Shown here piece by piece: positions 3-30,201 of a stretch of DNA of 64,000 nt (position 1 is its first letter; every line of letters begins with the position of its first letter). The translations under genes were made by a program, and so were the position numbers. This stretch comes from an uncultured Gammaproteobacteria bacterium. GTDB lineage: Bacteria > Patescibacteriota > Patescibacteriia > UBA9934. The stretch covers positions 1,900-65,899 of the forward strand of contig CAZORP010000004.1 in assembly GCA_964582615.1 (NCBI GenBank), read 5' to 3'. The notes under the pieces were generated by a model that searched no databases, was not told the origin of the DNA, and worked only from the letters and a program-made list of their open reading frames with translations.

Positions 3-689
3 GCAAAGACGCTCTTTGATGCTGTGGCAATTGCGAATGAATTTAAAGAAAGAAAAGATCTTGTTGATAATCTTATTGGTGCAGATGAAAATCGTGGATG
101 CTCAGGTGGTGGGGGAGTTTCTGATTGGTATGTGGGTGCAAAGAACGCCGGATTTTCCTATATTAACGGTATCGTAGGATTTCACTATCTTGCAGTTCCT
201 GTCGCGGAACGTCCTCAGGGGTGGGATGATCAAAAGATTCTCCACGACTTCTTTCACTATGTTGCTCCTCAAGATACGTCCACCTACTTCTATCCGTTCC
301 TCATAAGCAAGGTTGGATTCACTGAAGATCCTCAGGGGGATTTGCTAGTTTCCGCGGGATCCCTTGGAAACATTCGTTCATTCGCGGAAGAGTCTCCTTG
401 GACGCTTCTTGCGGATACGCACTGTCCAAAGGGGACTTGCCCGCTAACTTCGGAAGATGCTCAGGGAATTGTTTCGTACATCGCAGATTTTGCAGAACAA
501 TTTGATGGCCATCGCCCGGCGAAGATCACTATTTACCTTCCAACGGATCTTTTTTCTGGATCAGACGATGCAGTTCTTCGGGAGCTTTTCTCGGGAATTC
601 AAGGATTGGTTGAAGAAAAGGGGGTAGTTTGGGCTACGCAGGGAGATGTGTATGATGGTGTCATGGAATATTATCGTGAAACATACTAA
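3..689 (+). CDS. hypothetical protein, 5'-truncated by window edge
   Basis: Frame is open from nt 3 with no upstream stop; 221-aa ORF from the first Met at 24; followed by an intrinsic terminator; no recognisable motif. Confidence 0.4.
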   Translation, partial: AKTLFDAVAIANEFKERKDLVDNLIGADENRGCSGGGGVSDWYVGAKNAGFSYINGIVGFHYLAVPVAERPQGWDDQKILHDFFHYVAPQDTSTYFYPFLISKVGFTEDPQGDLLVSAGSLGNIRSFAEESPWTLLADTHCPKGTCPLTSEDAQGIVSYIADFAEQFDGHRPAKITIYLPTDLFSGSDDAVLRELFSGIQGLVEEKGVVWATQGDVYDGVMEYYRETY

Positions 690-691
690 AA

Positions 692-720
692 AACATCACC
701 CAAAAGGGTGATGTTTTTTG
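692..720. terminator. bidirectional rho-independent terminator between convergent genes
   Basis: catcaccc-aaaa-gggtgatg hairpin with an A-run before and a T-run (tttttt) after. Confidence 0.6.
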
Positions 721-731
721 TTGGGCACTTG

Positions 732-1313
732 CTACTCAGCCTGCGCTACGTCTGATTCTGGAGCGAATTCCTGAGGTTGACCCATGTCGCCTGGCATCAT
801 GCGGTGCTCTCCACTCATCTCTCCACGTCCTCCTCCGCGGCGCATGTCACCAAAGATTTCACGAAGAGTTTCCTTGGAGATTCCCTCTGACTCAAGAAAT
901 GCATCCATGGATTCGCGTCGTTCCTCCATAGCAGCTTGACGCTCTTCTTCGGTCATGGAAGCGAAGCTTTCACGGTCAGATTCACGGTCTTGTTCGTGCT
1001 CTTCGTGTTGAGCTTTGAGCGCATCTGCCTGATCTTGCGTGAGCTTGCCATCGGTTACTGCTTGAGCGAGCTTTGCTTCAAGTTCAGCTTCACGTTCCTG
1101 CGCACGCTCTTCCTCCATTGCTTCGTGGTGCTCGGTGAAGACTTCGCGAACATCATCGGCGTTAAGATCGAACTTGCTTGCAAGTGTTGTAATGAGATCA
1201 TCAATCGATCCTCCGCTTGTTTTTTCTGCGGCAAATACCGTTGCGCCTGTTACTCCAGCGCCAAGCGTACTTACAAGTGCCGCACCTACCAAACCTTGTT
1301 TGAGGGTAATCAT
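732..1313 (-). CDS. secreted acidic coiled-coil protein, Spy/CpxP-like (LTXXQ motif)
   Basis: N-terminal signal-like hydrophobic segment; LTQDQ motif inside a charged helical region (KLTQDQADALKAQHEEHEQ); E/R-rich. Confidence 0.4.
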   Translation of the reverse strand: MITLKQGLVGAALVSTLGAGVTGATVFAAEKTSGGSIDDLITTLASKFDLNADDVREVFTEHHEAMEEERAQEREAELEAKLAQAVTDGKLTQDQADALKAQHEEHEQDRESDRESFASMTEEERQAAMEERRESMDAFLESEGISKETLREIFGDMRRGGGRGEMSGEHRMMPGDMGQPQEFAPESDVAQAE

Positions 1314-1403
1314 AGAAAGAAAGTGAAGAATGAAGGTGTCACTTTTTGGTGACGTTGGTACTATAAAAAAACCTCAATGAAGAAAAGATGAAGAGGATGT
1401 GGA

Positions 1404-2042
1404 TTAAGGTTTATGAAGAAAAAGCCATGATATTGGGCCAAAAATCATCCATGCAGATATCCAAGCGAGAATGCCGATGATAAGAAAAGCTTCGTAAGGA
1501 CGTTCTCGTGAGGATTGTTTGCTGAAAGCTTGTTGAGTTGCATAGACGGCGACCGATCCTTGGAGACAGCTTCCGACAAACAATAAAGATGCAATGTGCG
1601 ACGGAAGTTGTGCGGCGTAGGATATACAAAGTACGGTCATTCCAATTCCAACCGGACCAAGAAGTGCAAGTGTGGTTTTTTTGTCGGAAGATGTTGGTGC
1701 ATGAAGAATGGTTGTAGCGATAACTCCAAAGATGACCGCGGTTATTTCACTTAGCGAGAAAGAGATAATGCCTAGTAGTGGAGCTGTGCCGAATAAGATG
1801 GTGAGAATAAGCCAAAAAGGTCCATCCAAAAGAAGGGTAAGTGCGGAGAAGGGATTTTTTGGTTCTTTGAGCGTTGCACTAAAAAAACCAAGATAAAGCG
1901 CAGTTCCGATGGTTCCACCAAGAAGTGCTATGAGGATGTTGGGTGAAAATTGTAAAATAAAAATTCCCACAATAACAGCTAGAGCTGGCATGCAGACGGT
2001 AATACCTGCGTGAAGTGATGTAATAGCTTTTATAGTATTCAC
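1404..2042 (-). CDS. polytopic membrane protein of unknown function
   Basis: 212 aa, about 6 hydrophobic helices; 4-nt overlap with murI. Confidence 0.45.
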   Translation of the reverse strand: MNTIKAITSLHAGITVCMPALAVIVGIFILQFSPNILIALLGGTIGTALYLGFFSATLKEPKNPFSALTLLLDGPFWLILTILFGTAPLLGIISFSLSEITAVIFGVIATTILHAPTSSDKKTTLALLGPVGIGMTVLCISYAAQLPSHIASLLFVGSCLQGSVAVYATQQAFSKQSSRERPYEAFLIIGILAWISAWMIFGPISWLFLHKP

Positions 2043-2809
2043 AGGTCTAGAGATGTGCGAATAAGTTGATGTCCTTGATTGGGAAAAAGTTCTTGAATAT
2101 ATGCGCTAAAATTGGGGTTTGGTTGCGTGCTAAAAAACGTCACATCTCCCGATCCGTCAAGAAAGGCTTCTGGGTGGTGTGTAATGACGCTTTCTGCAAC
2201 TCGTGAGGATGGGTCAAGAAGTGGAAGGTGGTAGTTGTGCTTGGCGAGTATTTTTGCGATGTATTGTTTGGCGAGGGGGTAGTGTGTGCACCCAAGAACA
2301 ATAGCATCGGTTGGTGTTATAGAGAGGCTTTTTAGTAAAGGAAGAAGAGCTTCTTCTATGCGCTGGAGTGATTGTCGAGCGTCAATGGCATGAGCAAGAA
2401 GTGGGAGTGCAACTTCGTGCACGGTGAGGTGTTTTGGCGCGAGCCTTTGATACAGGTGCGAAGCCTCTGTTTTTGGCGTACAGATAACGGTTAGATGTTT
2501 GTAGGAATTTTCCTGAAGTAGGCGAGATATTCCCTCGTGCATAGTGATAAGTTTTGGGACTTGCCGCGCCTCTTTTGAGAAGACGGTTCCCGAAAGGGTA
2601 TTGCATGCGCACAGGGAAATATCGACATGCTCGTCATCCATTTTTTCAAGAAGAGCGGTTCCTAATATAGAAAGCTCTTTGAGAGTTTTCTCGCCGTACG
2701 GCATATTGGCATGGTCTCCAAGAAAGCGTATATCGGCGAGCGGCATGATATCAATAATGGCTCGCATGACGGAGAGTCCACCTGATCCTGAGTCAAAAAT
2801 TCCTAACAT
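2039..2809 (-). CDS. murI: glutamate racemase
   Basis: N-terminal IFDSGSGGLSV and the CACNTLS motif typical of MurI; 256 aa. Confidence 0.8.
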   Translation of the reverse strand: MLGIFDSGSGGLSVMRAIIDIMPLADIRFLGDHANMPYGEKTLKELSILGTALLEKMDDEHVDISLCACNTLSGTVFSKEARQVPKLITMHEGISRLLQENSYKHLTVICTPKTEASHLYQRLAPKHLTVHEVALPLLAHAIDARQSLQRIEEALLPLLKSLSITPTDAIVLGCTHYPLAKQYIAKILAKHNYHLPLLDPSSRVAESVITHHPEAFLDGSGDVTFFSTQPNPNFSAYIQELFPNQGHQLIRTSLDL

Positions 2810-3828
2810 ATACGGGGAATTTTTAGCGTAACAGTCGTGCCCTTGCCTTGTGTGCTTTCTATAGAGAGTCTTCCGCCAAGACGTTCAAGTGCTTCTTTTG
2901 CAAAAGCTACGCCAAGACCGCTTCCACCACGTGATCGATTGCGACTTTTTTCGACTCGGAAGAAGCGTTCTCCGATACGAGGAATATCTTCTTGTGAGAT
3001 GCCAACGCCAGTATCTTCAATGCGGACCATGACCCATGTGTCATCATGCGTTACCAAACAAGTCACGCGACCACCCTCTGGAGTGTAGCTTATGCCGTTA
3101 TGTATGATGTTGGTAAGAATGTGTGAAAGCGTTGTTTGGGGAACCTCAAAAGAGATGAGTTCTTGGGGAAAGGTAATCTCTGCAAGTGTCACGCCGTGCT
3201 CTTTTGCAAGAGGAAGAAGTCGTTCTCGTGTTGTTGTTATGACTGAGAAAAGGGATGTTTTTATATCATCTTGAGCGAAATGGTCATCAAGTGAGGCCAA
3301 GTGAAGAAGGTGCGCGATGAGGTTACGCATACGATCGATTTCTTCGAGGCTTTTTTTGAGTGGCGAAGTGCGCTGGGGGTCTTCTGATGATTGTGCATTC
3401 TCAATCTGAAGCCGAAGAATGGTGAGAGGTGTTTTAAGCTCATGAGCAGCATTGCGAACAAAATCACGCTGTTTCTCATACGCCTGTTCGATAGGGGAGA
3501 AGGTAATTCCTGCAATAACGTAACTCAGGCCTCCTGCAAAAATAAGCAGGGTAATATTTACCAGGAGAATAACAAAATGAATATCTTCTCGAAAGGCTCG
3601 AAGGTTTTCTTCAGAGGGGGGAAGAGGGAGTGCTTCATTGGTGGTAGGTCGTATGAATCGAGTATCAAGACGGAGACGTAAAAGACTATTGGTGATGCCT
3701 CCGGAAAGAAAAAGAAGTATGCACGCGAGGGATGTATACGCTAGCGTGAGGGTGACTCGAGATGTTGTGAAGAGTGCGTTAAACGAGGCGATACCCTTTT
3801 CCCCAGACGGTTTTGATGCGTTTTCCAT
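2803..3828 (-). CDS. two-component sensor histidine kinase
   Basis: Two N-terminal TM segments; H-box HELKTPLT; HATPase G-boxes (DTGVGI, GGSGLGV). Start uncertain because the ORF overlaps the RR gene by 50 nt. Confidence 0.75.
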   Translation of the reverse strand: MENASKPSGEKGIASFNALFTTSRVTLTLAYTSLACILLFLSGGITNSLLRLRLDTRFIRPTTNEALPLPPSEENLRAFREDIHFVILLVNITLLIFAGGLSYVIAGITFSPIEQAYEKQRDFVRNAAHELKTPLTILRLQIENAQSSEDPQRTSPLKKSLEEIDRMRNLIAHLLHLASLDDHFAQDDIKTSLFSVITTTRERLLPLAKEHGVTLAEITFPQELISFEVPQTTLSHILTNIIHNGISYTPEGGRVTCLVTHDDTWVMVRIEDTGVGISQEDIPRIGERFFRVEKSRNRSRGGSGLGVAFAKEALERLGGRLSIESTQGKGTTVTLKIPRIC

Positions 3829-4531: not shown

Positions 4532-5167
4532 ATGAACGAAGCTATTCAAAAGGCGCTTACGTGGCGCTATGCGGTTAAGGTTTTTGACGCTCAAAAGATG
4601 GTAGATGAGAAGGTTTTTTCAACGATTCTTGAATCAGGACGCCTTGCTCCTAGTGCATTCGGACTTGAGCCTTGGAAATTTTTTGTGATTTCTAAAAAAG
4701 AACTTCGACAAGAGCTTCGAGCGGTAAGTTTTGATCAGGCGAAAGTTACCGATGCAAGTCATCTCATTGTTCTTGCTCGTCGTACGGATATGAAGACTCG
4801 TGGATGGGAAGAACTTGAGAGTCGTGTTATGGCGCAAACAGGAGCTTCATCTGAACAGCTCGCGGGATACAAGGCTATGGTTTCTGGATTTCTTGAGGGA
4901 ATGCCTGAAAATGCACTTGACGCATGGGCTCGAAGTCAGACGTACATTCCTCTTGGTATGATGATGGAAACCGCGGCACTTCTTGGTGTGGATACGTGTC
5001 CTATGGAGGGGTTTGATGCACAGAAGGTTGATGAGATTCTTGGGCTTTCACAACAAAACCTGTCTGTTACCGCAATGCTTGCTGTTGGTTACCGTGGCGA
5101 AGATGCGTATGCAGGACATCCAAAAGTTCGTCGCTCAGCTGAGGAGGTTATTGTAAAAGTTGTTTAG
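4532..5167 (+). CDS. NAD(P)H nitroreductase family protein
   Basis: RYAVKxF...LAPSAxGLEPWKFxVI pattern; 211 aa; typical nitroreductase fold signature. Confidence 0.7.
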   Translation: MNEAIQKALTWRYAVKVFDAQKMVDEKVFSTILESGRLAPSAFGLEPWKFFVISKKELRQELRAVSFDQAKVTDASHLIVLARRTDMKTRGWEELESRVMAQTGASSEQLAGYKAMVSGFLEGMPENALDAWARSQTYIPLGMMMETAALLGVDTCPMEGFDAQKVDEILGLSQQNLSVTAMLAVGYRGEDAYAGHPKVRRSAEEVIVKVV

Positions 5168-5603: not shown

Positions 5604-6665
5604 ATGAAAGAAGAGATGAAGCGGCTAGAAAAAGGTTCGAAAATATTTCATGATTTTCCCACGATTGTGCCATCGGTCGATGCTTTGCGTGAAGCTATTC
5701 GTAGTGATAAGCGTCCTAGCGAGTATGATCTTGGGGAAGATAGCCGCATTAAAGATCTTGAAAAGTATTTTCGCGAAGCATATCCTCTCGCAAAATATCC
5801 CAAAAAAGCCTTTGAACCTCTTGTGGTTTTTGATGGAAAAAATGAAGAGCTTGACGAGGAAAATATTCCCAACAATAAGAGCTATCTTAGTTTAGACGGA
5901 ACATTTTGTGCATACGTGGGTACCTCCGGATCTGAGGGGGTATTTCGAGATGTTGATGTTGCTTGTTTTGTTGATGAGCGCGGTAGGCATCAATCCTATA
6001 AAGAATTCGAGGCGTTGGATAGTGGCGCCTCGCGCTCCTCTTTTGTGCAAAGAGCAACGAATCCTTTTGACTTTATGTCAGGAAAGATCGTATTTACGAT
6101 AATCTCGGAAGTTACCGCACAAGAAGCTCCAGTAAAGACCGATGAGGCTATTGTAATGTGTTTGCGTAAAATTTTCAGGCTTCAAAGATCTTCTGGAAAT
6201 GAGATGTTTTCCTTGATGGTGGATCGTGCTCGCCGAGATGTTTTACCTGCCCTCTATGCTCTTGGCGCATCGCATGAGGAAGTTGATGGAATTGAGACAT
6301 TGCTTATCGATAGTACGCCCGAGAAATTCACCATGCTTCAGGAGAAAATAAAGAATTTTCTTATTCCAAAACTTTCACATGACGTTGCCTTGGAGGTTTT
6401 TAAAGATTCATTGTGGAATGTTGATGCTTTTGTTCTGGTGCGTGGAAGAAAGACTGTTCGTATTGAACAAAGAGTTACAGCTGAGCTTGATAAGGATGGT
6501 GAGATTTGGGATAGCGTCTTTGATGCGCCTCGGTGGAGCGTTCTTCAAAATACTACTTTTGTACCATCACAGCCGCTTGAGTACATGTTTTCACCGAATG
6601 ACCATGAAGAGATTTTTGATAGAGCGCTTCTTGCATTTCAAAGAATCGACAAGCTCCGCAGGTAG
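5604..6665 (+). CDS. hypothetical protein (353 aa)
   Basis: Long ORF with coding-like composition; no motif recognised. Confidence 0.4.
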   Translation: MKEEMKRLEKGSKIFHDFPTIVPSVDALREAIRSDKRPSEYDLGEDSRIKDLEKYFREAYPLAKYPKKAFEPLVVFDGKNEELDEENIPNNKSYLSLDGTFCAYVGTSGSEGVFRDVDVACFVDERGRHQSYKEFEALDSGASRSSFVQRATNPFDFMSGKIVFTIISEVTAQEAPVKTDEAIVMCLRKIFRLQRSSGNEMFSLMVDRARRDVLPALYALGASHEEVDGIETLLIDSTPEKFTMLQEKIKNFLIPKLSHDVALEVFKDSLWNVDAFVLVRGRKTVRIEQRVTAELDKDGEIWDSVFDAPRWSVLQNTTFVPSQPLEYMFSPNDHEEIFDRALLAFQRIDKLRR

Positions 6666-6677
6666 GGGAATGGGCTC

Positions 6678-6711
6678 TTGAAAAAAAGGTAAAAAAGTGC
6701 TAGTATATAAT
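6678..6711 (+). promoter_or_regulatory. sigma70-like promoter (TTGAAA, 17-nt spacer, extended -10 TGcTAGTAT)
   Basis: -35 TTGAAA at 6678-6683, TG at 6698-6699, -10 TAGTAT at 6701-6706; tataat follows immediately. Confidence 0.5.
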
Positions 6712-6712
6712 G

Positions 6713-7278
6713 TTTTTCTTAATTTCGGGAAAAACAAGGAGGGAGATGTCGGAGTATTTCAGTATACAGCCCACGCCTCCTGTTAGGGGTGGTGGGCGTG
6801 GGTTCCTTTCCGCAGAGCTTCTGCGGTTTGGAATCAGTCCCCGCTGGATTGAGGGGTTTCGCGAGCCAAGTGCGGGTGAAGTGCCCGTTCCTCGACTCGA
6901 TTCACCCCGAGCAACCTTGAGATTTGCCGTTCAGGTTGCGGCAAATCTTGGAATGAAAACCTTTGTCTCCAAGGAGCTTTATGCGTTCTTGGAGACTGGA
7001 GAGGTCTCTGTGGTTGATTGGCGGGCATGGAGTTTTTCGTGCCCTGAGGCCAGTCATTGGGCGGGTGATGTTCTCTGCCCCGCCTTTCTCCCAATTTACT
7101 ATGCACATTCGAGGGACGCCTCGGTGCTTGGTGATTGGGATGCTAGCGGTGTTGGCTTTCCTGCGTTAGCGCGGGGGAGGGGGCATAGAATCCTCGTGGT
7201 GAGGATTCGTACAGATGCCTGTACGTTCGATATCGTGTAGCGATCCGGAACGCTCTTTGTGAGAGTTCCGGTTTTTTT
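6713..7278 (+). ncRNA. candidate ~570-nt structured RNA of unknown class (alternative: small GC-rich acquired ORF 6745-7240)
   Basis: GC-enriched block versus its flanks; many local hairpins (ccgcaga..tctgcgg, gcaacct..aggttgc, gaatcctc..gaggattc, gtacag..ctgtac); own promoter and strong intrinsic terminator; ORFs open in several frames in the GC-rich manner, with a W/R/G-rich translation. Confidence 0.3.
7245..7278 (+). terminator. rho-independent terminator
   Basis: ccggaac-gctctttgtgaga-gttccgg followed by ttttttt. Confidence 0.7.
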
Positions 7279-7332
7279 ATGCCTTCACACACGATCTTGA
7301 CATACCCCTAGGGGGGTATATTATGAGACTGT

Positions 7333-7599
7333 ATGGAAAAAACCTCCCAACAAAAAATTCTTCGAAGATTAAAAATTCTTGAAGGACAGCTTCGTGGATT
7401 GCAGGAAATGATCGAAAAAGATACGTACTGTATCGATGTTATTACGCAGACTTCAGCGGTAAAGCAGGGGCTCTCAGTGGTTGAGGATATTCTTCTTGAG
7501 CGCCATCTTGGACATTGCGTTGTTCATCAAATGAAACGAGGTGAAGAAAAGAAGGCGGTTGGTGAAATACTCAAAGTTTATCAGCTTAAGCGAAAGTAG
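7333..7599 (+). CDS. csoR: CsoR/RcnR-family metal-sensing transcriptional repressor
   Basis: 88 aa; C..DV..Q..A...H.C pattern (YCIDVITQTSAV...HLGHC); directly upstream of a Cu-ATPase. Confidence 0.75.
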   Translation: MEKTSQQKILRRLKILEGQLRGLQEMIEKDTYCIDVITQTSAVKQGLSVVEDILLERHLGHCVVHQMKRGEEKKAVGEILKVYQLKRK

Positions 7600-7600
7600 T

Positions 7601-9853
7601 ATGAAGAAAATTACCGCAAAAGTTACCGGTATACACTGCGCTTCCTGCATTTATCGGATTGAAAAAACTTTAAAAAAACATGAAAAAGTTGAGGATGTAA
7701 GTGTCAATGGATCAAGTCACGAAGCGGTTATTACCCTGCGCGATGCACTGATTGATCTCGCGGAACTTTCAAAGAGTATTGAGCCTTTTGGTTATGCACT
7801 TCAGAGCCTTTCTCCAAAGGACGATCGGCACACGGGTGGTGCTCAGCTTGGTGAAGATGATGAGATTATGCTTCTTAAAAAGCAACTTCTTATTTCATTA
7901 CCGCTTGTTCTTTTTTCTTCGGGAATGATGCTGTGGGATATTGGAGCGGAATATTTTCGTATACTTCCAGAGTTTTCTGATGTTGTTAAAACTTTTTTTC
8001 ACCACCTTCTCCCCGTCATGGCGACGTACATGATGACGGTTATAGGTGTGCCGTACCTTCGAGGTCTCCTTCGATTTGTTCGTACGGGTAGTGCTGACAT
8101 GGATGCACTCATTGGACTTGGCACGCTTTCAGCCTTTCTTTACAGTTTCGTACTTTCGGCATTTGAAAATTCTCTTGCAAAATACATGAATGTCGAGGCT
8201 ACATACTACGATGTTACCATTGTGGTTATTGGATTAGTTACACTTGGAAAGTATCTTGAGGTTCGTGCAAAAAGGAAAACAGGAGAAGCTATGAAGAAGC
8301 TTCTTGGTTTGCAGGTAAAGACGGCGATTGTTGTGCGAGAGGGTACTGAGCGTGAAATTTCCCTTGATGCAGTTGAGAAGGGGGATGTTCTTCTTGTAAA
8401 GCCCAGCATGAGCATTCCTGTTGATGGGGTGATTCTTGATGGGGAGTCTTTTCTTGATGAGGCGCTCATGACGGGGGAGTCAGTTCCGCGTTATAAGAAA
8501 GTGGGTGACAGTGTTCATGCGGGAACGATGAATACTACTGGCGCGTTTCACATGAAGGCCACGGCTGTTGGAGGGGAGACGGTGCTTGCAAGAATGATTG
8601 AGCTTGTTCGTGAAGCGCAAGGGTCAAAGTCTCATCTTCAACGATTGGTTGATCGTGTGGCTTCGGTATTTGTACCAAGTGTGCTTGGCATTGCGGTGGT
8701 TTCGTTTGGAGCTTGGATGATGGCCGCGCCGTCATGGCAAGAGGCATTACCGCTGGCCATTTCTTCATTTGTTAGCATTTTAGTTATCGCATGTCCTTGC
8801 GCGCTTGGTCTTGCTACGCCGACGGCGATTATGGTGGGTATTGGTCGGGGGGCGTTCATGGGAATTCTTATAAAAAATGCTGATGCACTTGAGCGTCTTT
8901 ATGATGTAAAAACACTTGTACTTGATAAAACAGGAACGCTCACCATGGGAAGTCCAAGAGTTCTTAAGGTGTATATCAACGATCCTGATCGTGTAAAGAT
9001 TCTCACGAATCTTTACTCACTTGAGTCGTACTCGCATCATCCTCTTGCTCGTGCTATTGAACATTATGCTGAGAAAGAAGGCGCGCAGAAGGTTGCTGTC
9101 ACGCAGATAGTAGATACTCCGGGCGTGGGTATTGAGGGTGTGATTGATGGGGTTTCTTATGCGGTGGGAGGTCCGGAGCTTCTTCGAAGAAAGGGAATTG
9201 CTCAAGATGGGCGCTTGCTTAAGCTTTCGTCTTCTACGCATGTATACTTCGTTGAGCATGATCGAGTTATTGCGGCACTCGCGCTGGGAGATGAAATTAA
9301 GCCTCATGCAAAGAAGACCGTTGCACAGTTGCAGAAGATGGGCATTGATGTTGTCATGGCTACGGGAGATCGTAGAGAGGTTGCGGAATATGTTGCTCGT
9401 GAACTCGGCATCGCTACGGTATTCTCAGAAGTTTCTCCCGAAGAAAAGTTGAGAATTATTGAAAGACTTCAGAAAGATAGGGTTTCTGTGGGTATGGTTG
9501 GTGATGGAGTCAATGATGCTCCCGCACTTGCAAAAGCCACGGTCGGCATAGTTATGAGCACAGGATCTGATATCGCTTTGGAAGCGGGAGATGTCACCCT
9601 TTTGCAAGGTGATATTGAAAAAATTCCTCAAGCGCTAAGTTTGGCAAGAGAGACCATGAGAACTATGCGGCAGAATCTTTTCTGGGCATGTATGTACAAT
9701 GTCATTGGTATACCGCTTGCGGCCGGCGCATTCTTTCCTGTATTCGGCTGGCTTCTTTCCCCGGTTTTTGCAGGTTTCGCCATGGCGATGTCCTCCGTTT
9801 CTGTGGTGCTTAATGCGCTTCGTTTAAAAACCAAAAAACTTTCGTATGAGTAA
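7601..9853 (+). CDS. copA: copper-translocating P1B-type ATPase
   Basis: N-terminal HMA (GIHCASC); CPC motif (IACPCALGLATP); DKTGTLT; GDGVNDAP. Start set at the Met 2 nt after the csoR stop rather than the upstream in-frame Met. Confidence 0.85.
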   Translation: MKKITAKVTGIHCASCIYRIEKTLKKHEKVEDVSVNGSSHEAVITLRDALIDLAELSKSIEPFGYALQSLSPKDDRHTGGAQLGEDDEIMLLKKQLLISLPLVLFSSGMMLWDIGAEYFRILPEFSDVVKTFFHHLLPVMATYMMTVIGVPYLRGLLRFVRTGSADMDALIGLGTLSAFLYSFVLSAFENSLAKYMNVEATYYDVTIVVIGLVTLGKYLEVRAKRKTGEAMKKLLGLQVKTAIVVREGTEREISLDAVEKGDVLLVKPSMSIPVDGVILDGESFLDEALMTGESVPRYKKVGDSVHAGTMNTTGAFHMKATAVGGETVLARMIELVREAQGSKSHLQRLVDRVASVFVPSVLGIAVVSFGAWMMAAPSWQEALPLAISSFVSILVIACPCALGLATPTAIMVGIGRGAFMGILIKNADALERLYDVKTLVLDKTGTLTMGSPRVLKVYINDPDRVKILTNLYSLESYSHHPLARAIEHYAEKEGAQKVAVTQIVDTPGVGIEGVIDGVSYAVGGPELLRRKGIAQDGRLLKLSSSTHVYFVEHDRVIAALALGDEIKPHAKKTVAQLQKMGIDVVMATGDRREVAEYVARELGIATVFSEVSPEEKLRIIERLQKDRVSVGMVGDGVNDAPALAKATVGIVMSTGSDIALEAGDVTLLQGDIEKIPQALSLARETMRTMRQNLFWACMYNVIGIPLAAGAFFPVFGWLLSPVFAGFAMAMSSVSVVLNALRLKTKKLSYE

Positions 9854-17525: not shown

Positions 17526-17528
17526 ACA

Positions 17529-17760
17529 GTTGAAAAACCACCAGACATTGCTGGTGGGTTTTCAACTGCGGTCATAATGCACTTAACTGCCTTTGAGAGA
17601 CGCAGGTATCCGTGAGGATAATTAGCGTTGCCCTAGGTATTCAGGTATTTCGCACCATGACAGCGCTTGGCAGGGCACTCCGCTCCTGAACTCGTTTATT
17701 CAGGGGGTTTCGGAGGATTCTGACGGTATCAAGCGAGGGACTCCGGTCACGTAAACTGTT
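17529..17760. repeat. intergenic repeat element R2
   Basis: ttgaaaaaccaccag-acattg-ctggtgggttttcaa palindromic hairpin; gcgcttggcagggcac and ggactccggtcac blocks shared with R3 and R4. Confidence 0.55.
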
Positions 17761-17790
17761 ACAAAATGTTACATGTGACGGGTATGTTCA

Positions 17791-21353: not shown

Positions 21354-22631
21354 ATGCCTACTCAGATACAAACCACGTATGTTCCCATAACTAATCTGAA
21401 TCCCGCGCTCTACAACCCGCGCAAATGGGACAAAGAGGCGACGAAGAAGCTCCGCGAAAGCTTGGAGCGATTCGGCTTCGTCGACCCCATCCTCGTAAAC
21501 GGCGCACCCGATCGCATGAATATTGTCATCGGTGGTCATTTCCGTCTCAAAGTTGCGAAGGATATGGGCATGACGGAAGTCCCTGTCGTCTATCTCCATA
21601 TCCCAGACATCGAGAAGGAGAAGGAACTCAACCTTCGTCTCAATCGTAATACCGGTACGTGGGATTACGACCTTCTCAAGGCATTCGATACTAACTTCCT
21701 ACAGGATGTCGGCTTTGATGCGTTGGACCTCCAGAATGTCTGGGGAGATCTTGCATCCATCGACGACCGACTCATTCTGAAGGAGGGTGAGGTTGAACCT
21801 CCAGAAAAACCAACCATTCAAGATGGCGAAATCTATAAGCTCGGAGATCATCTTTTGATGTGTGCGGATTCTACAGGCCCCGCCAATGCCGCTCGTCTCA
21901 TGAGAGAAGAAAAAGCAGACATGATCTATTGTGATCCTCCGTATAACATCAAACTAGATTACGCGAATGGCGTTTCAACGGACGGCAAATACGCTGGGCA
22001 AGTAAATGATGCGTTGCCAGACGGTGAGTACCAAGAATTCATCAAAAAATCAGTCGAGGTTGCACTATCCGTCGCGAAGCCCGACGCACACATCTTTTAC
22101 TGGTGTGACCAGAGGTATATCTGGTTGGTTCAGCGTGTATATCGGCACTGGAAGATTGAAAATCGCCGCGTGTGCTTGTGGATCAAGAACAACTTCAACA
22201 TGACTCCGCAGGTTGCCTTCAATAAGGCATACGAGCCGTGCGTCTATGGAACGATCGGAAAGCCATACCTCAATCCTGATGTCACGAATCTTCACGAGAT
22301 CGTGAACAAAGACGTGGACGCGGGTAACCGAGCAACGAGCGACATCATCGATCTTTTTGACATCTGGCTTGCGAGTCGTGATGCAGGACAGGAATACGAA
22401 CACCCGACTCAAAAACCCCTCTCACTCCACGAGAAGCCACTGAAACGCTGCACAAAGCCGGGTGACGTTATCTTGGATCTCTTTGGTGGCAGCGGATCGA
22501 CGCTTCTTGCGTGCGAGCAAATGCGTCGCAAAGCAAGGCTCATAGAAAAGAATCCTGCATTTTGTCACGTCATCATCAAAAGATTCGAGGAGATGACCGG
22601 TCTTAAGGCTGAAAAAGTAACGAGTAACTAA
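21354..22631 (+). CDS. ParB-like nuclease domain fused to a beta-class N6A/N4C DNA methyltransferase
   Basis: N-terminal ParB/Srx-like region (YNPRKW...VNGAPDRMNIVIGGHFR); MTase motif IV CDPPYN before motif I FGGSGST. Confidence 0.75.
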   Translation: MPTQIQTTYVPITNLNPALYNPRKWDKEATKKLRESLERFGFVDPILVNGAPDRMNIVIGGHFRLKVAKDMGMTEVPVVYLHIPDIEKEKELNLRLNRNTGTWDYDLLKAFDTNFLQDVGFDALDLQNVWGDLASIDDRLILKEGEVEPPEKPTIQDGEIYKLGDHLLMCADSTGPANAARLMREEKADMIYCDPPYNIKLDYANGVSTDGKYAGQVNDALPDGEYQEFIKKSVEVALSVAKPDAHIFYWCDQRYIWLVQRVYRHWKIENRRVCLWIKNNFNMTPQVAFNKAYEPCVYGTIGKPYLNPDVTNLHEIVNKDVDAGNRATSDIIDLFDIWLASRDAGQEYEHPTQKPLSLHEKPLKRCTKPGDVILDLFGGSGSTLLACEQMRRKARLIEKNPAFCHVIIKRFEEMTGLKAEKVTSN

Positions 22632-23926: not shown

Positions 23927-24529
23927 CTACTTTGTCACTTCCGTAGAAAGGAAAACCGTGGTGGTCTGCTTCGTGGCATCGTTTACCGCAACGAGTCCAT
24001 AGCCGATCGTGTCACTTGGGATTTCATAAACGATCACGCCCTTCTTTGGAATGGACGGACTGAGCGTCTGAACTTCCAAATAGTTATCGATAGATCCGAT
24101 GGTGTCATCGTAGGTCGTATAACCCCGCCCTTCGCCATCTCCGAGTCGCAAGTACTGGTTTGGCATGTAGAGAAAATCCGAGGTCGACTTCGAGGTCACT
24201 TGCAGTTCAATAATGACAAACTTCGTCCCCTCAACGGCAGCGACCGGCTTGCCGTAGCGTGAACTCATGGTTTGCGCCTCACGGACACTGAGAACCTTCA
24301 TCTCATGCGTTGCGAGGTCGATTGGATTGTTGATCTTTGCCTCGACGACTTCTTTCTCGGAATTCTTGGTGTTCGTAGTTATGGAACCGGACGGAGTTAC
24401 CGTGGTCTTTGGACGATCGCTTCCGTCATCCATGTACGGTGCGATAATGAAAATGAACAAAATGAAACCGAGGACTCCCGTGAGGATCTTATGCTGCTTG
24501 AACCAGCTCTGTTTTGGGTCATTCGACAT
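23927..24529 (-). CDS. membrane-anchored DUF4352-like protein
   Basis: N-terminal TM helix; Thr/Ser-rich linker; beta-rich domain with YLRLGDGEGRGY...VIVYEIP. Confidence 0.4.
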   Translation of the reverse strand: MSNDPKQSWFKQHKILTGVLGFILFIFIIAPYMDDGSDRPKTTVTPSGSITTNTKNSEKEVVEAKINNPIDLATHEMKVLSVREAQTMSSRYGKPVAAVEGTKFVIIELQVTSKSTSDFLYMPNQYLRLGDGEGRGYTTYDDTIGSIDNYLEVQTLSPSIPKKGVIVYEIPSDTIGYGLVAVNDATKQTTTVFLSTEVTK

Positions 24530-24879
24530 AGTAAAGCGTATGAGGAATTAATCCCGAGTATTGCTAAAACAAAAAGCGACACCCGGTGGCGCTTTACAAC
24601 CCAGCCCAAGCACGGATCGTGCAAGGTCTGTTTTAACCGGATGCCGCTCATTGCGCGCGATCCGGAAATAGCCAAATACGGCCTGCAAAGGCTGAGTTGT
24701 AAAGCACCGACATAGTAGCATAGGCACCCCCAAAGTAAAGCGATTTGCTCAGTATTTTGCCTTTCCTTATACCTTGAGGGCTTTTGAGTTACCTACAGGT
24801 CTGGGGCTAGGCACCCCGGACAGGTGTGGCATCAATGTAGCTGTCCCCTAGGGAACTAGGGCGCACAAACTACGAACAT

Positions 24880-26295
24880 ATGCCGGAACACAATCCGCTC
24901 CACAGTCCCACGCTTCTCGCGGAAAATAGAGCTAACAATATAGGTAAAGGCGATGCAAAAGTTGATCTTCGGTATTGCCTCTATGCACGCAAGTCATCCG
25001 AAGATGACGAACGTCAAGCGTTGTCCATCGATTCACAAATCAACGAAATGATGGAACTGGCGAGAAAGGAAGGAATGGACATCGTTGAGACGCGTCGAGA
25101 GAGTCATTCAGCAAAGTCATCCGGCGAGCGACCGGAATTCAATCAATTGATGATCGATATCGATAAAGGACTCTTCAATGCCATTCTCACATGGGCGCCA
25201 GATCGCTTGAGTCGTAACGCTGGAGATCTTGGGTCACTCGTTGATCTCATGGATCGTGCGAAGCTTCATGAGATCAGGACGCACTCACAGAAGTTCACGA
25301 ACTCACCGAATGAAAAGTTCCTCCTGATGATCCTCGGAAGCCAGGCAAAGCTCGAGAATGACAATCGCGGTATTAATGTAAAACGTGGCCTCAAGAACAA
25401 AGTTGAAATGGGATGGCGGCCAGGACTTCCGCCCCTTGGCTACTACAACGAGAGATCAATTAATCGCGGTCAGAATAGAATCTTCATCGATGAAGAACGT
25501 GCACCGACCATTAAAAAGCTCTTTGAACTCGTCGCGTACGAAAAGATGACTGGAAGGGCACTTTTTACCTACTTGAAAGAGATTAATTTCAAAACGCGAA
25601 CCGATAAATTCGTCAGTGTTAGTAGCGTCTACAAGATCCTCAAGAACAGATTTTATTACGGCGAGTTCGAGTTCCCGGAAGGGAGCAGCAAGATCTATAA
25701 GGGAGCACACGAACCGCTTATAACAAAAGAGTTGTTCGATCGCGTACAAAATCAGCTCACTATTCCCGACCGACCAATCCAAGGCATTAAAGAATTCTCT
25801 TTTACGAAGATGTTCAAATGCGGCGCATGCGGCTCCGGCATCACCGCAGAGGAAAAGATTAAGAAGATCAAAGGAACAGAAGAGATACGAAAATACATCT
25901 ACTATCGGTGCGGAAAATCCAACGGGCGTATCTGTGACGAGAAGCCGATGCGTGAACAAGATATCCTCAATCAGCTCCTAGAACTTATTGATTCAATCGA
26001 GATCGATAGGATTGGTGCGCAAAAACGCATCGAAGACGAGCTGAAGCGTTACGCTGCATTCTCAGAAGGGGTGCTCGGAAAGAAGATCAATAAGCCAAAA
26101 CAAAAGGAGGTCAGCATTCGAAAATATGCAAAGCATATTCTCACAAATGGAACTCGCGAGGAGAAGCGAGAAATTCTGGAGCATGTAAAACACTGTATAG
26201 TGATATTCAATAGAGCTCTAAAGCTCGAATCCCTGGCACTGCCTAATGAAGCAAGAGAAGACCCCCCACGTTTAGAGAAACGCGGGGGGTCATGA
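24880..26295 (+). CDS. large serine recombinase (integrase)
   Basis: Resolvase catalytic region YARKSSEDDERQALSIDSQ; recombinase domain; zinc-ribbon CGACGSG...YYRCG; coiled-coil C-terminus. Confidence 0.8.
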   Translation: MPEHNPLHSPTLLAENRANNIGKGDAKVDLRYCLYARKSSEDDERQALSIDSQINEMMELARKEGMDIVETRRESHSAKSSGERPEFNQLMIDIDKGLFNAILTWAPDRLSRNAGDLGSLVDLMDRAKLHEIRTHSQKFTNSPNEKFLLMILGSQAKLENDNRGINVKRGLKNKVEMGWRPGLPPLGYYNERSINRGQNRIFIDEERAPTIKKLFELVAYEKMTGRALFTYLKEINFKTRTDKFVSVSSVYKILKNRFYYGEFEFPEGSSKIYKGAHEPLITKELFDRVQNQLTIPDRPIQGIKEFSFTKMFKCGACGSGITAEEKIKKIKGTEEIRKYIYYRCGKSNGRICDEKPMREQDILNQLLELIDSIEIDRIGAQKRIEDELKRYAAFSEGVLGKKINKPKQKEVSIRKYAKHILTNGTREEKREILEHVKHCIVIFNRALKLESLALPNEAREDPPRLEKRGGS

Positions 26296-26297
26296 AG

Positions 26298-27143
26298 TCA
26301 CTCGAGGCGTCGAATCGCAGCCCGGAGGACGTCGGCTGCGAGGGTGTTGGGCTTATACCTCAGACCGAGAACGCTCCGAGGCAACTCACCGCACGTGATA
26401 CCGAGGGAATCGTAAAAGTCTGCGGTTGCACCGAGGACTCTTCTCGAAAACTCTCGTTCGACGTTCTTCGGAATCGAAGCCCACTGCGTGGGCTTCCCGA
26501 ACGGCAAGACATAGGGAGCTCCGGTATTCAGAAGGCCCATGACCGTTCTTCCGGAAAGTGGCGCACCCGGCATGAAGTCTCGTTCGCAGATCTCATCTGT
26601 GACTTCGGAGTATTCACGTACTGCCGTGACAGAGCAGTTACGTGCCCGCAGTCGCTCAATACCTTCACCGATTGCGACACCGGCGAAAACGTGGCCAACC
26701 CGAATGTTTCGCTCCAGGAAGAGATCGATGATGCGTTCCATCATCGCTCCGCTGAAAACCACGTCATCCACGAGAGCTATGTCACGCTCATGGATAGTCG
26801 CAGCTACCTCGTCCACGATGGCGGTCAAATCCGTGTAGATGCCATCTCTCGTCCCGTAACCAGCATCACGTAGACCGCCATCAACCAGTCTGGTGACGTT
26901 GATCTGCAGCGCTCTCGGTGCGTAGACTCGATCCAGGCTGACGACCGGGAACGAAGAGTTGGCGAGGATATCCGAGAGCCCATCACGCAGCTCGCTCTCG
27001 GAAATCCATTCAGTCGAGCCAACGCTAACGTGCAAGGCGCTCTTCACCTCAGCGCGAAACCCCTCCAACACCGTATCGGGAACAACAAACCCAGCCTCTC
27101 GCCACAGCGTAGCGAGATCACAGGACACAACGTACGGACGCAT
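26298..27143 (-). CDS. type I phosphoribosyltransferase-domain protein, GC-rich
   Basis: PRPP-binding motif IALVDDVVFSGAMM; GC content clearly above that of its neighbours. Confidence 0.5.
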   Translation of the reverse strand: MRPYVVSCDLATLWREAGFVVPDTVLEGFRAEVKSALHVSVGSTEWISESELRDGLSDILANSSFPVVSLDRVYAPRALQINVTRLVDGGLRDAGYGTRDGIYTDLTAIVDEVAATIHERDIALVDDVVFSGAMMERIIDLFLERNIRVGHVFAGVAIGEGIERLRARNCSVTAVREYSEVTDEICERDFMPGAPLSGRTVMGLLNTGAPYVLPFGKPTQWASIPKNVEREFSRRVLGATADFYDSLGITCGELPRSVLGLRYKPNTLAADVLRAAIRRLE

Positions 27144-27220
27144 GTCGAACTCCTTGGAACCTCCCAGCGTCTTTGCCGGGAGGGAGCGAATGCACTGCTT
27201 TCACTGCAACCGATCCCTTC

Positions 27221-27772
27221 CTACAAAGAAGGGATTTGATGCACGACACGCACCGCTTGGATGGCCATAGCGACCGCAGCTTCCGGAGTTGATGCAACTT
27301 CGATACGTACTCGTTCACGCGGGTCAATAAATGTCCCAGCGAGACGTTCACTCCAGCCGCCAGTATTCTCGATGGTAATAATCGGAATATTGGCCTGATA
27401 GGCGATAGCCATTTCCGTGAGTGTTCCGGAGCCACCGTTTAAACAAATGATTGCATCGCAAGATGATACAAGTACAAACTCTCGACCGCCGCCACGACCC
27501 ATACCTGCCGTGACAATTGCGTCAGCGTTCTTTTCAACAACACCGTCAATGTCTTTGCCGTAGGTAACCCCAACCACAAAGCCTCCCGCACGCTTTGCAC
27601 CGCGGCAGGCGGCGGATGAAAGCGAATCAAGGTCTTTCTCTGCGCCGAACAATAAAATCGCACCCGCTTTCGCAATCTCTTCACCGACGCTTTCGGCTAA
27701 CACTGCAATCTTCGTTGAGTACTGAAGATCCGAACAAGAGCCCATCACGCCAATCTGTAATTTTCGTTTCAT
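27221..27772 (-). CDS. LOG / TIGR00725-like Rossmann-fold nucleotide-binding protein
   Basis: IGVMGS start and NGGSGTLTEMA (GGxGTxxE) motif. Confidence 0.55.
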   Translation of the reverse strand: MKRKLQIGVMGSCSDLQYSTKIAVLAESVGEEIAKAGAILLFGAEKDLDSLSSAACRGAKRAGGFVVGVTYGKDIDGVVEKNADAIVTAGMGRGGGREFVLVSSCDAIICLNGGSGTLTEMAIAYQANIPIITIENTGGWSERLAGTFIDPRERVRIEVASTPEAAVAMAIQAVRVVHQIPSL

Positions 27773-30127: not shown

Positions 30128-30201
30128 TGGCAGGGGCGGAGGGAATCGAACCCGCGCTAAAGGTTTTGGAGACCTCTGTACTGCCATTATACGACGCCCC
30201 T
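30128..30201 (-). tRNA. trnW: tRNA-Trp (anticodon CCA)
   Basis: Reverse-complement reads AGGGGCGTCGTATAATGGCAGTACAGAGGTCTCCAAAACCTTTAGCGCGGGTTCGATTCCCTCCGCCCCTGCCA; acceptor AGGGGCG/CGCCCCT; U8; anticodon loop CTCCAAA; TTCGATT T-loop; encoded CCA; ends closely resemble E. coli tRNA-Trp. Confidence 0.85.

Follow-up and report, generated by a model that had tools for sequence, protein, structure and literature searches.

Positions 6678-7278 (plus strand) of the 64,000-nucleotide (nt) stretch analysed here, which was taken from contig CAZORP010000004.1 of an uncultured bacterium (the unit described here was assembled from SRR16481183) and is hereafter called the window, hold a compact unit rich in guanine and cytosine (GC) that lies between a gene for a 353-amino-acid (aa) protein and the csoR-copA genes. 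The unit runs from a candidate promoter to a predicted intrinsic terminator and encloses an open reading frame (ORF) of 164 codons, the protein of which is present in public protein sets as P0001. Its parts are the following:

6678-6711, plus strand: sigma-70-like candidate promoter, with -35 TTGAAA at 6678-6683, a 17-nt spacer and an extended -10 TGcTAGTAT at 6698-6706
6701-6706, plus strand: TAGTAT hexamer, with the upstream TG at 6698-6699
6706-6711, plus strand: perfect TATAAT, overlapping the extended -10
6712-6735, plus strand: 24-nt stem-loop at the 5' end of the predicted transcript (9 pairs, of which 2 G-U), directly 5' of the ribosome-binding site
6736-6742, plus strand: AAGGAGG, a Shine-Dalgarno (SD)-like heptamer separated from the ATG by 3 nt and predicted to stay largely unpaired
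6746-7240, plus strand: ORF of 164 codons plus TAG stop (7238-7240), encoding an orphan protein (supported by its open frame, p = 0.0036, and by its codon score)
7245-7278, plus strand: intrinsic terminator CCGGAAC..GTTCCGG, a 10-pair interrupted stem at 7245-7271 followed by seven T residues (T7) at 7272-7278

An earlier reading of the same DNA (the first-pass annotation) had described this region as a GC-rich promoter-to-terminator unit with no credible protein and regarded it as a candidate large structured RNA. Apart from small corrections, every feature of the layout it proposed is present. The promoter is as described (TTGAAA, 17 nt, TGcTAGTAT) and the site at 6678-6706 matches the consensus at 9 of 12 positions; promoter-like sites occur in the region at near-chance frequency (6 found against 3.7 ± 2.3 expected), so that the promoter at 6678-6711 is plausibly real and is not significant by itself. 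The stem-loop at 6712-6735 (-5.7 to -7.4 kcal/mol, pair probability 0.97) is likewise not significant alone (z = -1.2). The terminator is a real interrupted stem with its T7 (-15.5 to -16.2 kcal/mol, z = -3.2), overlooked by our pattern scanner because the stem is interrupted by an internal bulge, and the TAG of the ORF lies 4 nt upstream of it. The AAGGAGG does precede an ATG, but this ATG is at 6746 and not 6745, and the spacer is 3 nt instead of 5. The overlapping ORFs reported for the other frames are found as well (43, 68, 90, 68 and 49 aa). Finally, the GC enrichment is clear: 200-nt windows across 6700-7299 have a GC content of 0.53-0.58, compared to 0.385-0.435 on the upstream side and 0.375-0.425 on the downstream side (the flanks were put at about 0.42 overall). 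When the window is divided into bins of 400 nt, only bin 26801-27200 exceeds the unit and bin 26401-26800 comes close.

Thermodynamic predictions strongly support the structural half of the first interpretation, namely that the GC-rich unit 6678-7278 is exceptionally structured as a transcript. The minimum free energy (MFE) of the 567-nt transcript is -266.5 kcal/mol, compared to -206.0 ± 6.3 kcal/mol for dinucleotide shuffles (z = -9.58 for the plus strand), and the reverse complement of the unit reaches z = -7.34 against such shuffles. In a scan of the window in 128 bins of 500 nt, the bin of the unit is the most extreme (z = -9.0), with a background mean z of -0.8, a standard deviation (sd) of 1.6 and a value of -6.6 for the most negative other bin. 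Expressed per 500 nt, the excess stability over shuffles is -57 kcal/mol; a GC-matched control of 140 real windows from unrelated genomes (GC 0.51-0.60) yields -3.3 ± 7.4 kcal/mol and goes no lower than -30.

A further control consists of synonymous-codon shuffles (n = 100), in which the protein and the codon usage are both preserved. Here the native sequence folds at -237.9 kcal/mol against -190.0 ± 5.8 for the shuffles (z = -8.33; best shuffle -213.8), and six segments of neighbouring genes treated likewise give z values of -1.86 to +1.02. Given the observation that the unit beats its own synonymous shuffles, the helices are written in the choice of codons and are no by-product of the amino-acid sequence; it is thus shown computationally that they are encoded at the nucleic-acid level. 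The predicted fold is a chain of local hairpins, at least 10 of them stable (pair probabilities 0.88-1.0), and about 70% of the bases of the unit are predicted to lie within GC-rich helices. A crude count of perfect hairpins does not separate the unit from other DNA, whereas the thermodynamic measures do. The main helices are:

6745-6753, plus strand: 5' arm of the predicted closing helix, G-AUG-UCGGA, which contains the start codon and pairs with 7226-7234
7226-7234, plus strand: 3' arm of the predicted closing helix, in the last codons of the ORF
6810-6826, plus strand: hairpin CCGCAGA-GCT-TCTGCGG (-9.8 kcal/mol, probability 0.96)
6872-6888, plus strand: hairpin GCGGGT-GAAGT-GCCCGT with 2 G-U pairs (-8.1 kcal/mol, probability 0.99)
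6915-6951, plus strand: long hairpin with core AGATTTGCCG / CGGCAAATCT (-17.6 kcal/mol, z = -4.2)
6965-6996, plus strand: long hairpin of 13 pairs, GTCTCCAAGGAGC / GCGTTCTTGGAGAC (-18.4 kcal/mol, z = -5.6, probability 0.99)
7023-7044, plus strand: hairpin of 9 pairs (-12.6 kcal/mol, probability 0.97)
7110-7123, plus strand: hairpin CGAGG-GACG-CCTCG (-6.8 kcal/mol, probability 1.00)
7188-7224, plus strand: abutting perfect hairpins GAATCCTC-GTGGT-GAGGATTC and GTACAG-ATGC-CTGTAC (-10.4 and -5.8 kcal/mol, probability 0.99-1.00)

The closing helix (6745-6753 / 7226-7234) joins the two ends of the ORF through 9 base pairs (bp) with individual probabilities of 0.80-1.00, the helix having a predicted probability of about 0.99. 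The hairpin at 6915-6951 forms 12 continuous pairs when folded alone and 14 within the fold of the whole unit. Among the stem-loops named in the first-pass annotation, ccgcaga/tctgcgg, gaatcctc/gaggattc and gtacag/ctgtac are part of the MFE fold (pair probability 0.96-1.0); gcaacct/aggttgc occurs only as an alternative to the stronger 6915-6951 hairpin. The GC excess of the unit resides in these helices: GC is 0.61 for paired and 0.38 for unpaired bases, compared to 0.47-0.50 and 0.31-0.40, respectively, in control genes.

The unit matches no RNA family in Rfam. At gathering thresholds Rfam 15 yields a single match in the whole window, a transfer RNA (tRNA) at 30131-30201. When 6500-7450 is searched at E <= 10, the best match is PyrG_leader (25.8 bits against a threshold of 65, E = 0.56), and RNase P, transfer-messenger RNA (tmRNA), 6S, signal recognition particle (SRP) RNA, OLE, ROOL, GOLLD, HEARO and raiA give no match even at this level. 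ARAGORN finds no tmRNA in the window, only tRNA-Trp, and on this negative a tmRNA identity was rejected. The slight likenesses that had been pointed out (tmRNA, RNase P, 6S, SRP) are consequently not real (no Rfam family at E = 0.5, ARAGORN negative). A CsrB-like decoy was also rejected, since no GGA motifs were seen by eye in the hairpin loops.

The second question is whether the ORF is translated, and here the first interpretation fares less well. A sense frame is open for 175 codons across the 533-nt unit, which is matched (in any sense frame) by 0.36% of 20,000 dinucleotide shuffles. We further scored the frames with codon log-odds trained on 39 long genes of the window, in which stop codons are ignored. 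The ORF frame scores +0.039 (range +0.03 to +0.04), against -0.27 and -0.15 for the other sense frames and -0.13 to -0.20 for the antisense frames; the 39 training genes display the same pattern (0.173 in frame, -0.28 and -0.25 out of frame). A Markov null that is forced open attains the score of the ORF in 0.37% of 3,000 trials. In a leave-one-out comparison 4 of 46 genes score below the ORF; when shadow ORFs with 90 codons or more are considered, 5 out of 112 score above it (0 out of 27 when restricted to GC >= 0.5). The codon-model check that the first-pass annotation had called for thus places the ORF with genes rather than with shadow ORFs; taken alone, the codon test favours coding by a modest likelihood ratio of about 3-10.

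Base composition at the codon positions points in the same direction. The unpaired bases of the ORF have GC1/GC2/GC3 values of 0.57/0.33/0.34 (0.575/0.40/0.42 in host genes), the paired bases have a GC of about 0.61 at all three positions, and the frequencies of G in the first position (0.39) and of T in the third (0.35) follow those of the host. Such a composition is what a native reading frame overlaid by GC-rich helices should give. The translation is indeed enriched in W, R, G and P, as had been remarked (W 3.0% against 0.9%, P 7.3% against 4.3%), but the codon statistics of the frame disagree with the judgement that it is not protein-like. The statement that no credible protein exists does not hold either, in view of the full open frame, its AAGGAGG start, its stop near the terminator, a gene-like codon score, host-like GC at unpaired bases and a weak match to a protein repeat (see below). 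The caveat added at the time, that a GC-rich gene of about 165 aa might be present, has become the better-supported reading (the ORF encodes 164 aa), and of the claimed large structured RNA the extreme fold stands in all controls while the noncoding status is not supported.

The start signal deserves separate attention. When the 20 nt preceding the first start codon are inspected for the 69 ORFs that reach 150 aa, GGAGG is present in one case (1/69) and GGAG in three (3/69). Upstream regions of window genes are A/T-rich, with -10-like hexamers near the ATG (for example at 21354, 29987, 38189 and 13421). The sequences suggest that host genes use leaderless or short-leader initiation. AAGGAGG occurs 16 times in 128 kb (both strands of the window), and it is unlikely (about 1e-3) that a copy should lie 3 nt from the ATG of the ORF by chance. 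So strong an SD may point to foreign descent or to a particular demand for strong initiation.

A last piece of evidence concerns one segment of the protein:

7094-7180, plus strand: ORF codons 117-145 (IYYAHSRDASVLGDWDASGVGFPALARGR), a single match to a 48-aa FG-GAP-like repeat, 'YGrstDxxlvGDWDGDGvdTpgvvRG'

A HMMER scan of 1.8 billion representatives returned the protein itself and 11 weak matches (E 2e-5 to 8e-4), 10 of which are secreted enzymes (CHAP, CAP, subtilase, SpoIID, polysaccharide deacetylase, Big_5) that carry 4-6 copies of the ~48-aa repeat, with a weak likeness to FG-GAP_3. A profile built from 42 'GDWDGDG' units aligns to ORF residues 117-145 without gaps at 22-23 bits, and over the six-frame translation of the window it gives E = 3e-6 for the ORF and about 1 for the next best hit. 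It should be noted that the repeat family was picked through the repeat-amplified matches of the query itself, because of which the match is no more than suggestive (p about 0.01-0.05 after a rough correction). The ORF holds one copy and the profile search finds none elsewhere in the window; with a single copy, a multi-blade FG-GAP protein was rejected.

We found no homologue of the RNA or the protein in any collection searched. Scans of IMG/VR and JGI metagenome contigs with the ORF were negative, plasmid and phage records match neither ORF nor unit at the DNA or protein level, and Pfam, PHROGs, PADLOC, NCBIfam and PDB sequences give no match for the ORF or for the 353-aa neighbour. Relatives of the adjacent CopA allow the locus to be compared. 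The best relative among GTDB species genomes shares 49% identity, and no DNA or ORF similar to the unit is found with the CopA relatives in GTDB; in a large protein set the best relatives reach 55-59%, the named ones being labelled 'Patescibacteria group bacterium'. As CopA has no close relatives, the window stems from an isolated lineage of the Candidate Phyla Radiation (CPR). In the four closest CopA relatives (57-59% identity) the csoR-copA-dsbD-cupredoxin order and the csoR operator are kept and the element is absent.

Several features of this locus are worth recording. The csoR-copA promoter (TTGACA, 16 nt, TATTAT; 11 of 12 matches) carries in its spacer the palindrome ATACCCC(n)GGGGGTAT, and the csoR ATG lies at 7333, 8 nt after the TATTAT -10 element. 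The palindrome (window 7297-7333) also occurs in relatives with 57-59% CopA identity (L068 at 7698-7735, L070 at 4680-4718 and L071 at 7700-7735) and is presumably a CsoR operator. L068 carries the closest CopA relative, and its slot before csoR (6895-7690) is occupied by a GC-rich 167-aa ORF led by AAAGGAGGGG, followed by a hairpin-rich tail of 290 nt (z = -4.9) that includes a perfect 12-bp hairpin. This ORF was rejected as a homologue, as it shows no sequence similarity and folds normally (synonymous z = -1.25); judged by its place, it counts as a positional analogue. This slot seems to take in foreign or variable DNA. On the other side, the 353-aa gene (5604-6665) directly upstream of the unit has a normal host composition, matches only itself among 5.8 billion clusters and has an AlphaFold model with a predicted local distance difference test score (pLDDT) of 39; no terminator separates it from the element. 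We searched for a direct repeat family and a second copy in the window and found neither, and terminal inverted repeats occur only at chance level; a repeat array, a miniature inverted-repeat transposable element or another mobile element was rejected on these grounds.

Weighing these results, we consider it probable, with limited confidence, that the unit is a translated lineage-specific orphan gene whose abnormally structured mRNA acts in cis. Transcription would start a few bases past the -10, at about 6713-6718 judging from the promoter consensus, and the RNA would open with the predicted 5' stem-loop and an exposed AAGGAGG. The 164-codon ORF at 6746-7240 would then be translated, as its statistics indicate, and the transcript would end at the predicted terminator (7245-7278). 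Within it, GC-rich helices are predicted, including two hairpins of about -18 kcal/mol and the 9-bp helix between the start codon and the last codons; computationally, these helices hinge on particular synonymous codons. The structure might give a long-lived, nuclease-resistant mRNA, and the initiation site might close once the 3' end has been made, which would limit translation to nascent or remodelled transcripts. By analogy, the most likely cis role is that of 5' stem-loop stabilisers and of hok-type fold-back inhibition.

The balance can be expressed in likelihood ratios, which are our own rough estimates and not the output of a tool. For coding, we roughly assign about 125-280 to the open frame, 5-30 to the SD-ATG arrangement, 3-10 to the codon statistics and 2-20 to the repeat; the extreme fold would favour a pure non-coding RNA (ncRNA) by perhaps 300-3000. 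On this rough count the combined ratios for coding outweigh that of the fold, and large ncRNAs are a priori far rarer than orphan genes. Since an ordinary gene almost never folds so strongly, the structure nevertheless needs a cause of its own.

A number of observations weigh against a translated gene with a cis-acting mRNA. By its codon score the ORF falls into the lower tail of the gene distribution (about -1.2 sd), its product has an unusual amino-acid composition (W 3.0%, K 1.2%, N 0.6%) and the single-sequence AlphaFold model of the 164-aa protein is poor (pLDDT 40). Its strong SD is atypical for a native gene of this genome and the spacer of 3 nt is short, so that only a moderate likelihood ratio for coding can be attached to it. 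Among 5.8 billion protein clusters the only match is the protein itself, and as no homologue was found, protein conservation, the ratio of nonsynonymous to synonymous substitutions (dN/dS) and covariation have no comparison set. The E-values behind the repeat match are inflated by tandem repeats: P0008, an unrelated protein of 700 aa with 12 near-identical tandem repeats, matched ORF residues 43-62 at E = 3.7e-4, which shows that one short chance match repeated in tandem inflates whole-sequence HMMER E-values. The excess stability of the whole unit is, moreover, about -60 kcal/mol on the plus and about -59 kcal/mol on the minus strand, and an excess that is equal on both strands gives no sign of selection on RNA over palindromes at the DNA level. 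The plus-strand fold does contain 28 G-U pairs against 5 in the minus-strand fold, a surplus explained by a G+T-rich composition.

A more far-reaching alternative is that the folded RNA itself is functional, either as a noncoding RNA with an accidental ORF or as a truly bifunctional one (a 164-aa protein together with a structural or regulatory RNA), and would represent a new, large, lineage-restricted Patescibacteria RNA of ~550 nt; we entertain this tentatively. If true, it would be the first bacterial full-length ORF of such size overlaid base-for-base on an ornate RNA fold. The noncoding form (unlikely in our judgement) holds that a large lineage-specific structured ncRNA of about 530-570 nt is left untranslated and that ORF, ATG and AAGGAGG are accidents of an A-poor sequence. 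It accounts well for a folding signal that is extreme under every control, for a stand-alone promoter-to-terminator unit and for a GC enrichment confined to paired positions (0.61 against 0.38), as helix selection would yield. It also fits with the strong SD being foreign to the usual initiation signals of the genome, with the poor protein model and with the lack of a protein homologue in 5.8 billion clusters and 1.8 billion representatives (beyond the repeat-amplified weak matches). However, the supposed accident is a full-length open frame seen in only 0.36% of shuffles, which has AAGGAGG directly ahead of it and its stop 4 nt short of the terminator, and frame-specific host-like codon statistics together with GC1 > GC2 ~ GC3 at unpaired bases would not be expected of it. 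No Rfam family matches in 6500-7450. The unit also lacks the conservation by which functional ncRNAs are usually recognised, there being no second copy or relative, and the element is missing from the four nearest relatives.

It might also be argued that the segment is non-functional or very young, having been acquired or generated (for example by inverted duplication or template switching) so recently that palindromes and frame have not yet decayed. Being a singleton without relatives anywhere searched, with a GC content and SD atypical for the host, the unit is compatible with such an origin; its near-perfect stems and strand-symmetric excess stability would fit DNA-level palindromes, and L068, with an unrelated GC-rich ORF at the equivalent place before csoR, suggests that foreign DNA is accepted at this locus. 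We nonetheless hold this to be quite improbable, as the gene architecture is complete and tidy (promoter, 5' hairpin, SD, ORF, terminator), the host-like G1- and T3-rich codon positions argue against a fresh import from a GC-rich donor, and flanking direct repeats, terminal inverted repeats and mobile-element genes are lacking. The weakest alternative is a bifunctional RNA, which would be translated while its folded body has a second task, for example binding proteins as a scaffold or decoy or regulating in trans. In its favour, the signals for coding and for structure are both strong and fall on the same bases, and a structure written in synonymous sites (z = -8.3) implies that some constraint, or its origin, does not depend on the protein. 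We hold it to be very doubtful given that we can name neither a target nor a partner nor a conserved motif, that the ORFs of known dual-function bacterial RNAs are below about 50 codons, that no homologue shows both layers to be maintained and that cis effects on stability or translation explain the data more simply.

If the orphan gene with a cis-acting mRNA is the right reading, the unit is an uncommonly clean natural example of one sequence meeting two codes, a host-like frame being embedded in a fold that is 7-9 standard deviations more stable than expected and that resides in synonymous sites. In CPR bacteria SD-led initiation is mostly absent, and the unit could become a test case for mRNA structure that limits or protects translation in this group. 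It could equally serve gene finders that have to separate GC-rich structured RNAs from orphan genes, and studies of de novo gene birth from structured transcripts. Its singleton status is a weakness here, as a single element offers no basis for generalising.

Other structured or GC-rich stretches were seen in the window. A gap of 350 nt (24530-24879) between a DUF4352 gene (23927-24529, minus strand) and the gene of a large serine recombinase (24880-26295, plus strand) folds very stably around a long inverted repeat, with z values of -6.45 (plus) and -5.39 (minus), and shows no Rfam match at E <= 10; it may represent a site of recombination or a mobile element's structured leader. A second gap of about 265 nt (17526-17790), between two minus-strand ORFs without Pfam match, holds the strong hairpin CAGUUGAAAA-CCACCAG..CUGGUGG-UUUUCAACUG (z = -4.8 to -6.6 for the enclosing 500-nt bin) and has no Rfam match at E <= 5. 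A second GC-rich patch (0.55-0.58) at 26298-27270 folds in a mildly unusual way (z about -3) and carries overlapping ORFs on opposite strands, of 281 aa (minus strand, AAGGAG upstream) and 193 aa (plus strand), neither with a Pfam match.

Finally, the unit can be set beside known systems. The products of hok-type type I toxin mRNAs are hydrophobic peptides about 50 aa long. These mRNAs possess a leader ORF as well as an antisense RNA partner and are regulated by fold-back inhibition, the full-length transcript being closed to ribosomes by 5'-3' pairing. Like these, the unit is predicted to have a compact full-length fold in which the translation-start segment pairs with the 3' end (6745-6753 / 7226-7234). 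Unlike them, it has an ORF of 164 aa whose product is not hydrophobic, and we saw neither an antisense gene nor a further ORF; in the promoter scan, minus-strand promoter-like sites lie only upstream of the unit and none inside it. A type I toxin mRNA was rejected, as the ORF is too long (a length below about 60 aa being expected) and not hydrophobic, and the resemblance to hok is one of predicted architecture only.

The dual-function bacterial RNAs RNAIII/hld, SgrS/SgrT and SR1/SR1P have tiny ORFs in a small part of the RNA and known base-pairing targets. The unit shares with them a strong fold and an ORF (here predicted to be translated) in a single transcript, and differs in that its ORF fills the whole RNA. 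Going by prediction alone, the unit would work like a nuclease-resistant mRNA closed by fold-back, or like a dual-function RNA, of uncommon scale. With the large ornate RNAs (OLE, ROOL, GOLLD, HEARO, raiA) and the housekeeping RNAs (RNase P, tmRNA, 6S, SRP) it has in common a size class of ~550 nt, a stand-alone unit, a GC content above that of the genome and a very stable predicted multi-helix fold. It is conservation and covariation in many genomes that define those RNAs, whereas the unit is a singleton with a full-length ORF that has coding statistics.

At the protein level, the ORF has a statistically no more than suggestive match to the FG-GAP-like 'GDWDGDG' beta-propeller repeats of secreted cell-wall enzymes (P0002-P0012, with a weak PF13517 likeness), to which its residues 117-145, a beta-strand motif, align ungapped at Y, D, GDWD, G, P and RG. 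Proteins with such repeats have 4-6 or more tandem copies, a signal peptide and a catalytic domain; the ORF has a single copy, no signal peptide is visible by eye at the N-terminus of the 164-aa protein, and searches of Pfam, NCBIfam and other libraries found no catalytic domain in it. In single-stranded RNA phages such as MS2, structure governs the access of ribosomes, and the structures are conserved and experimentally mapped. Unlike these RNA genomes the unit is a chromosomal DNA gene without relatives, with a structure that is predicted; what it shares with MS2-type coding regions is a coding sequence that appears to be densely base-paired.

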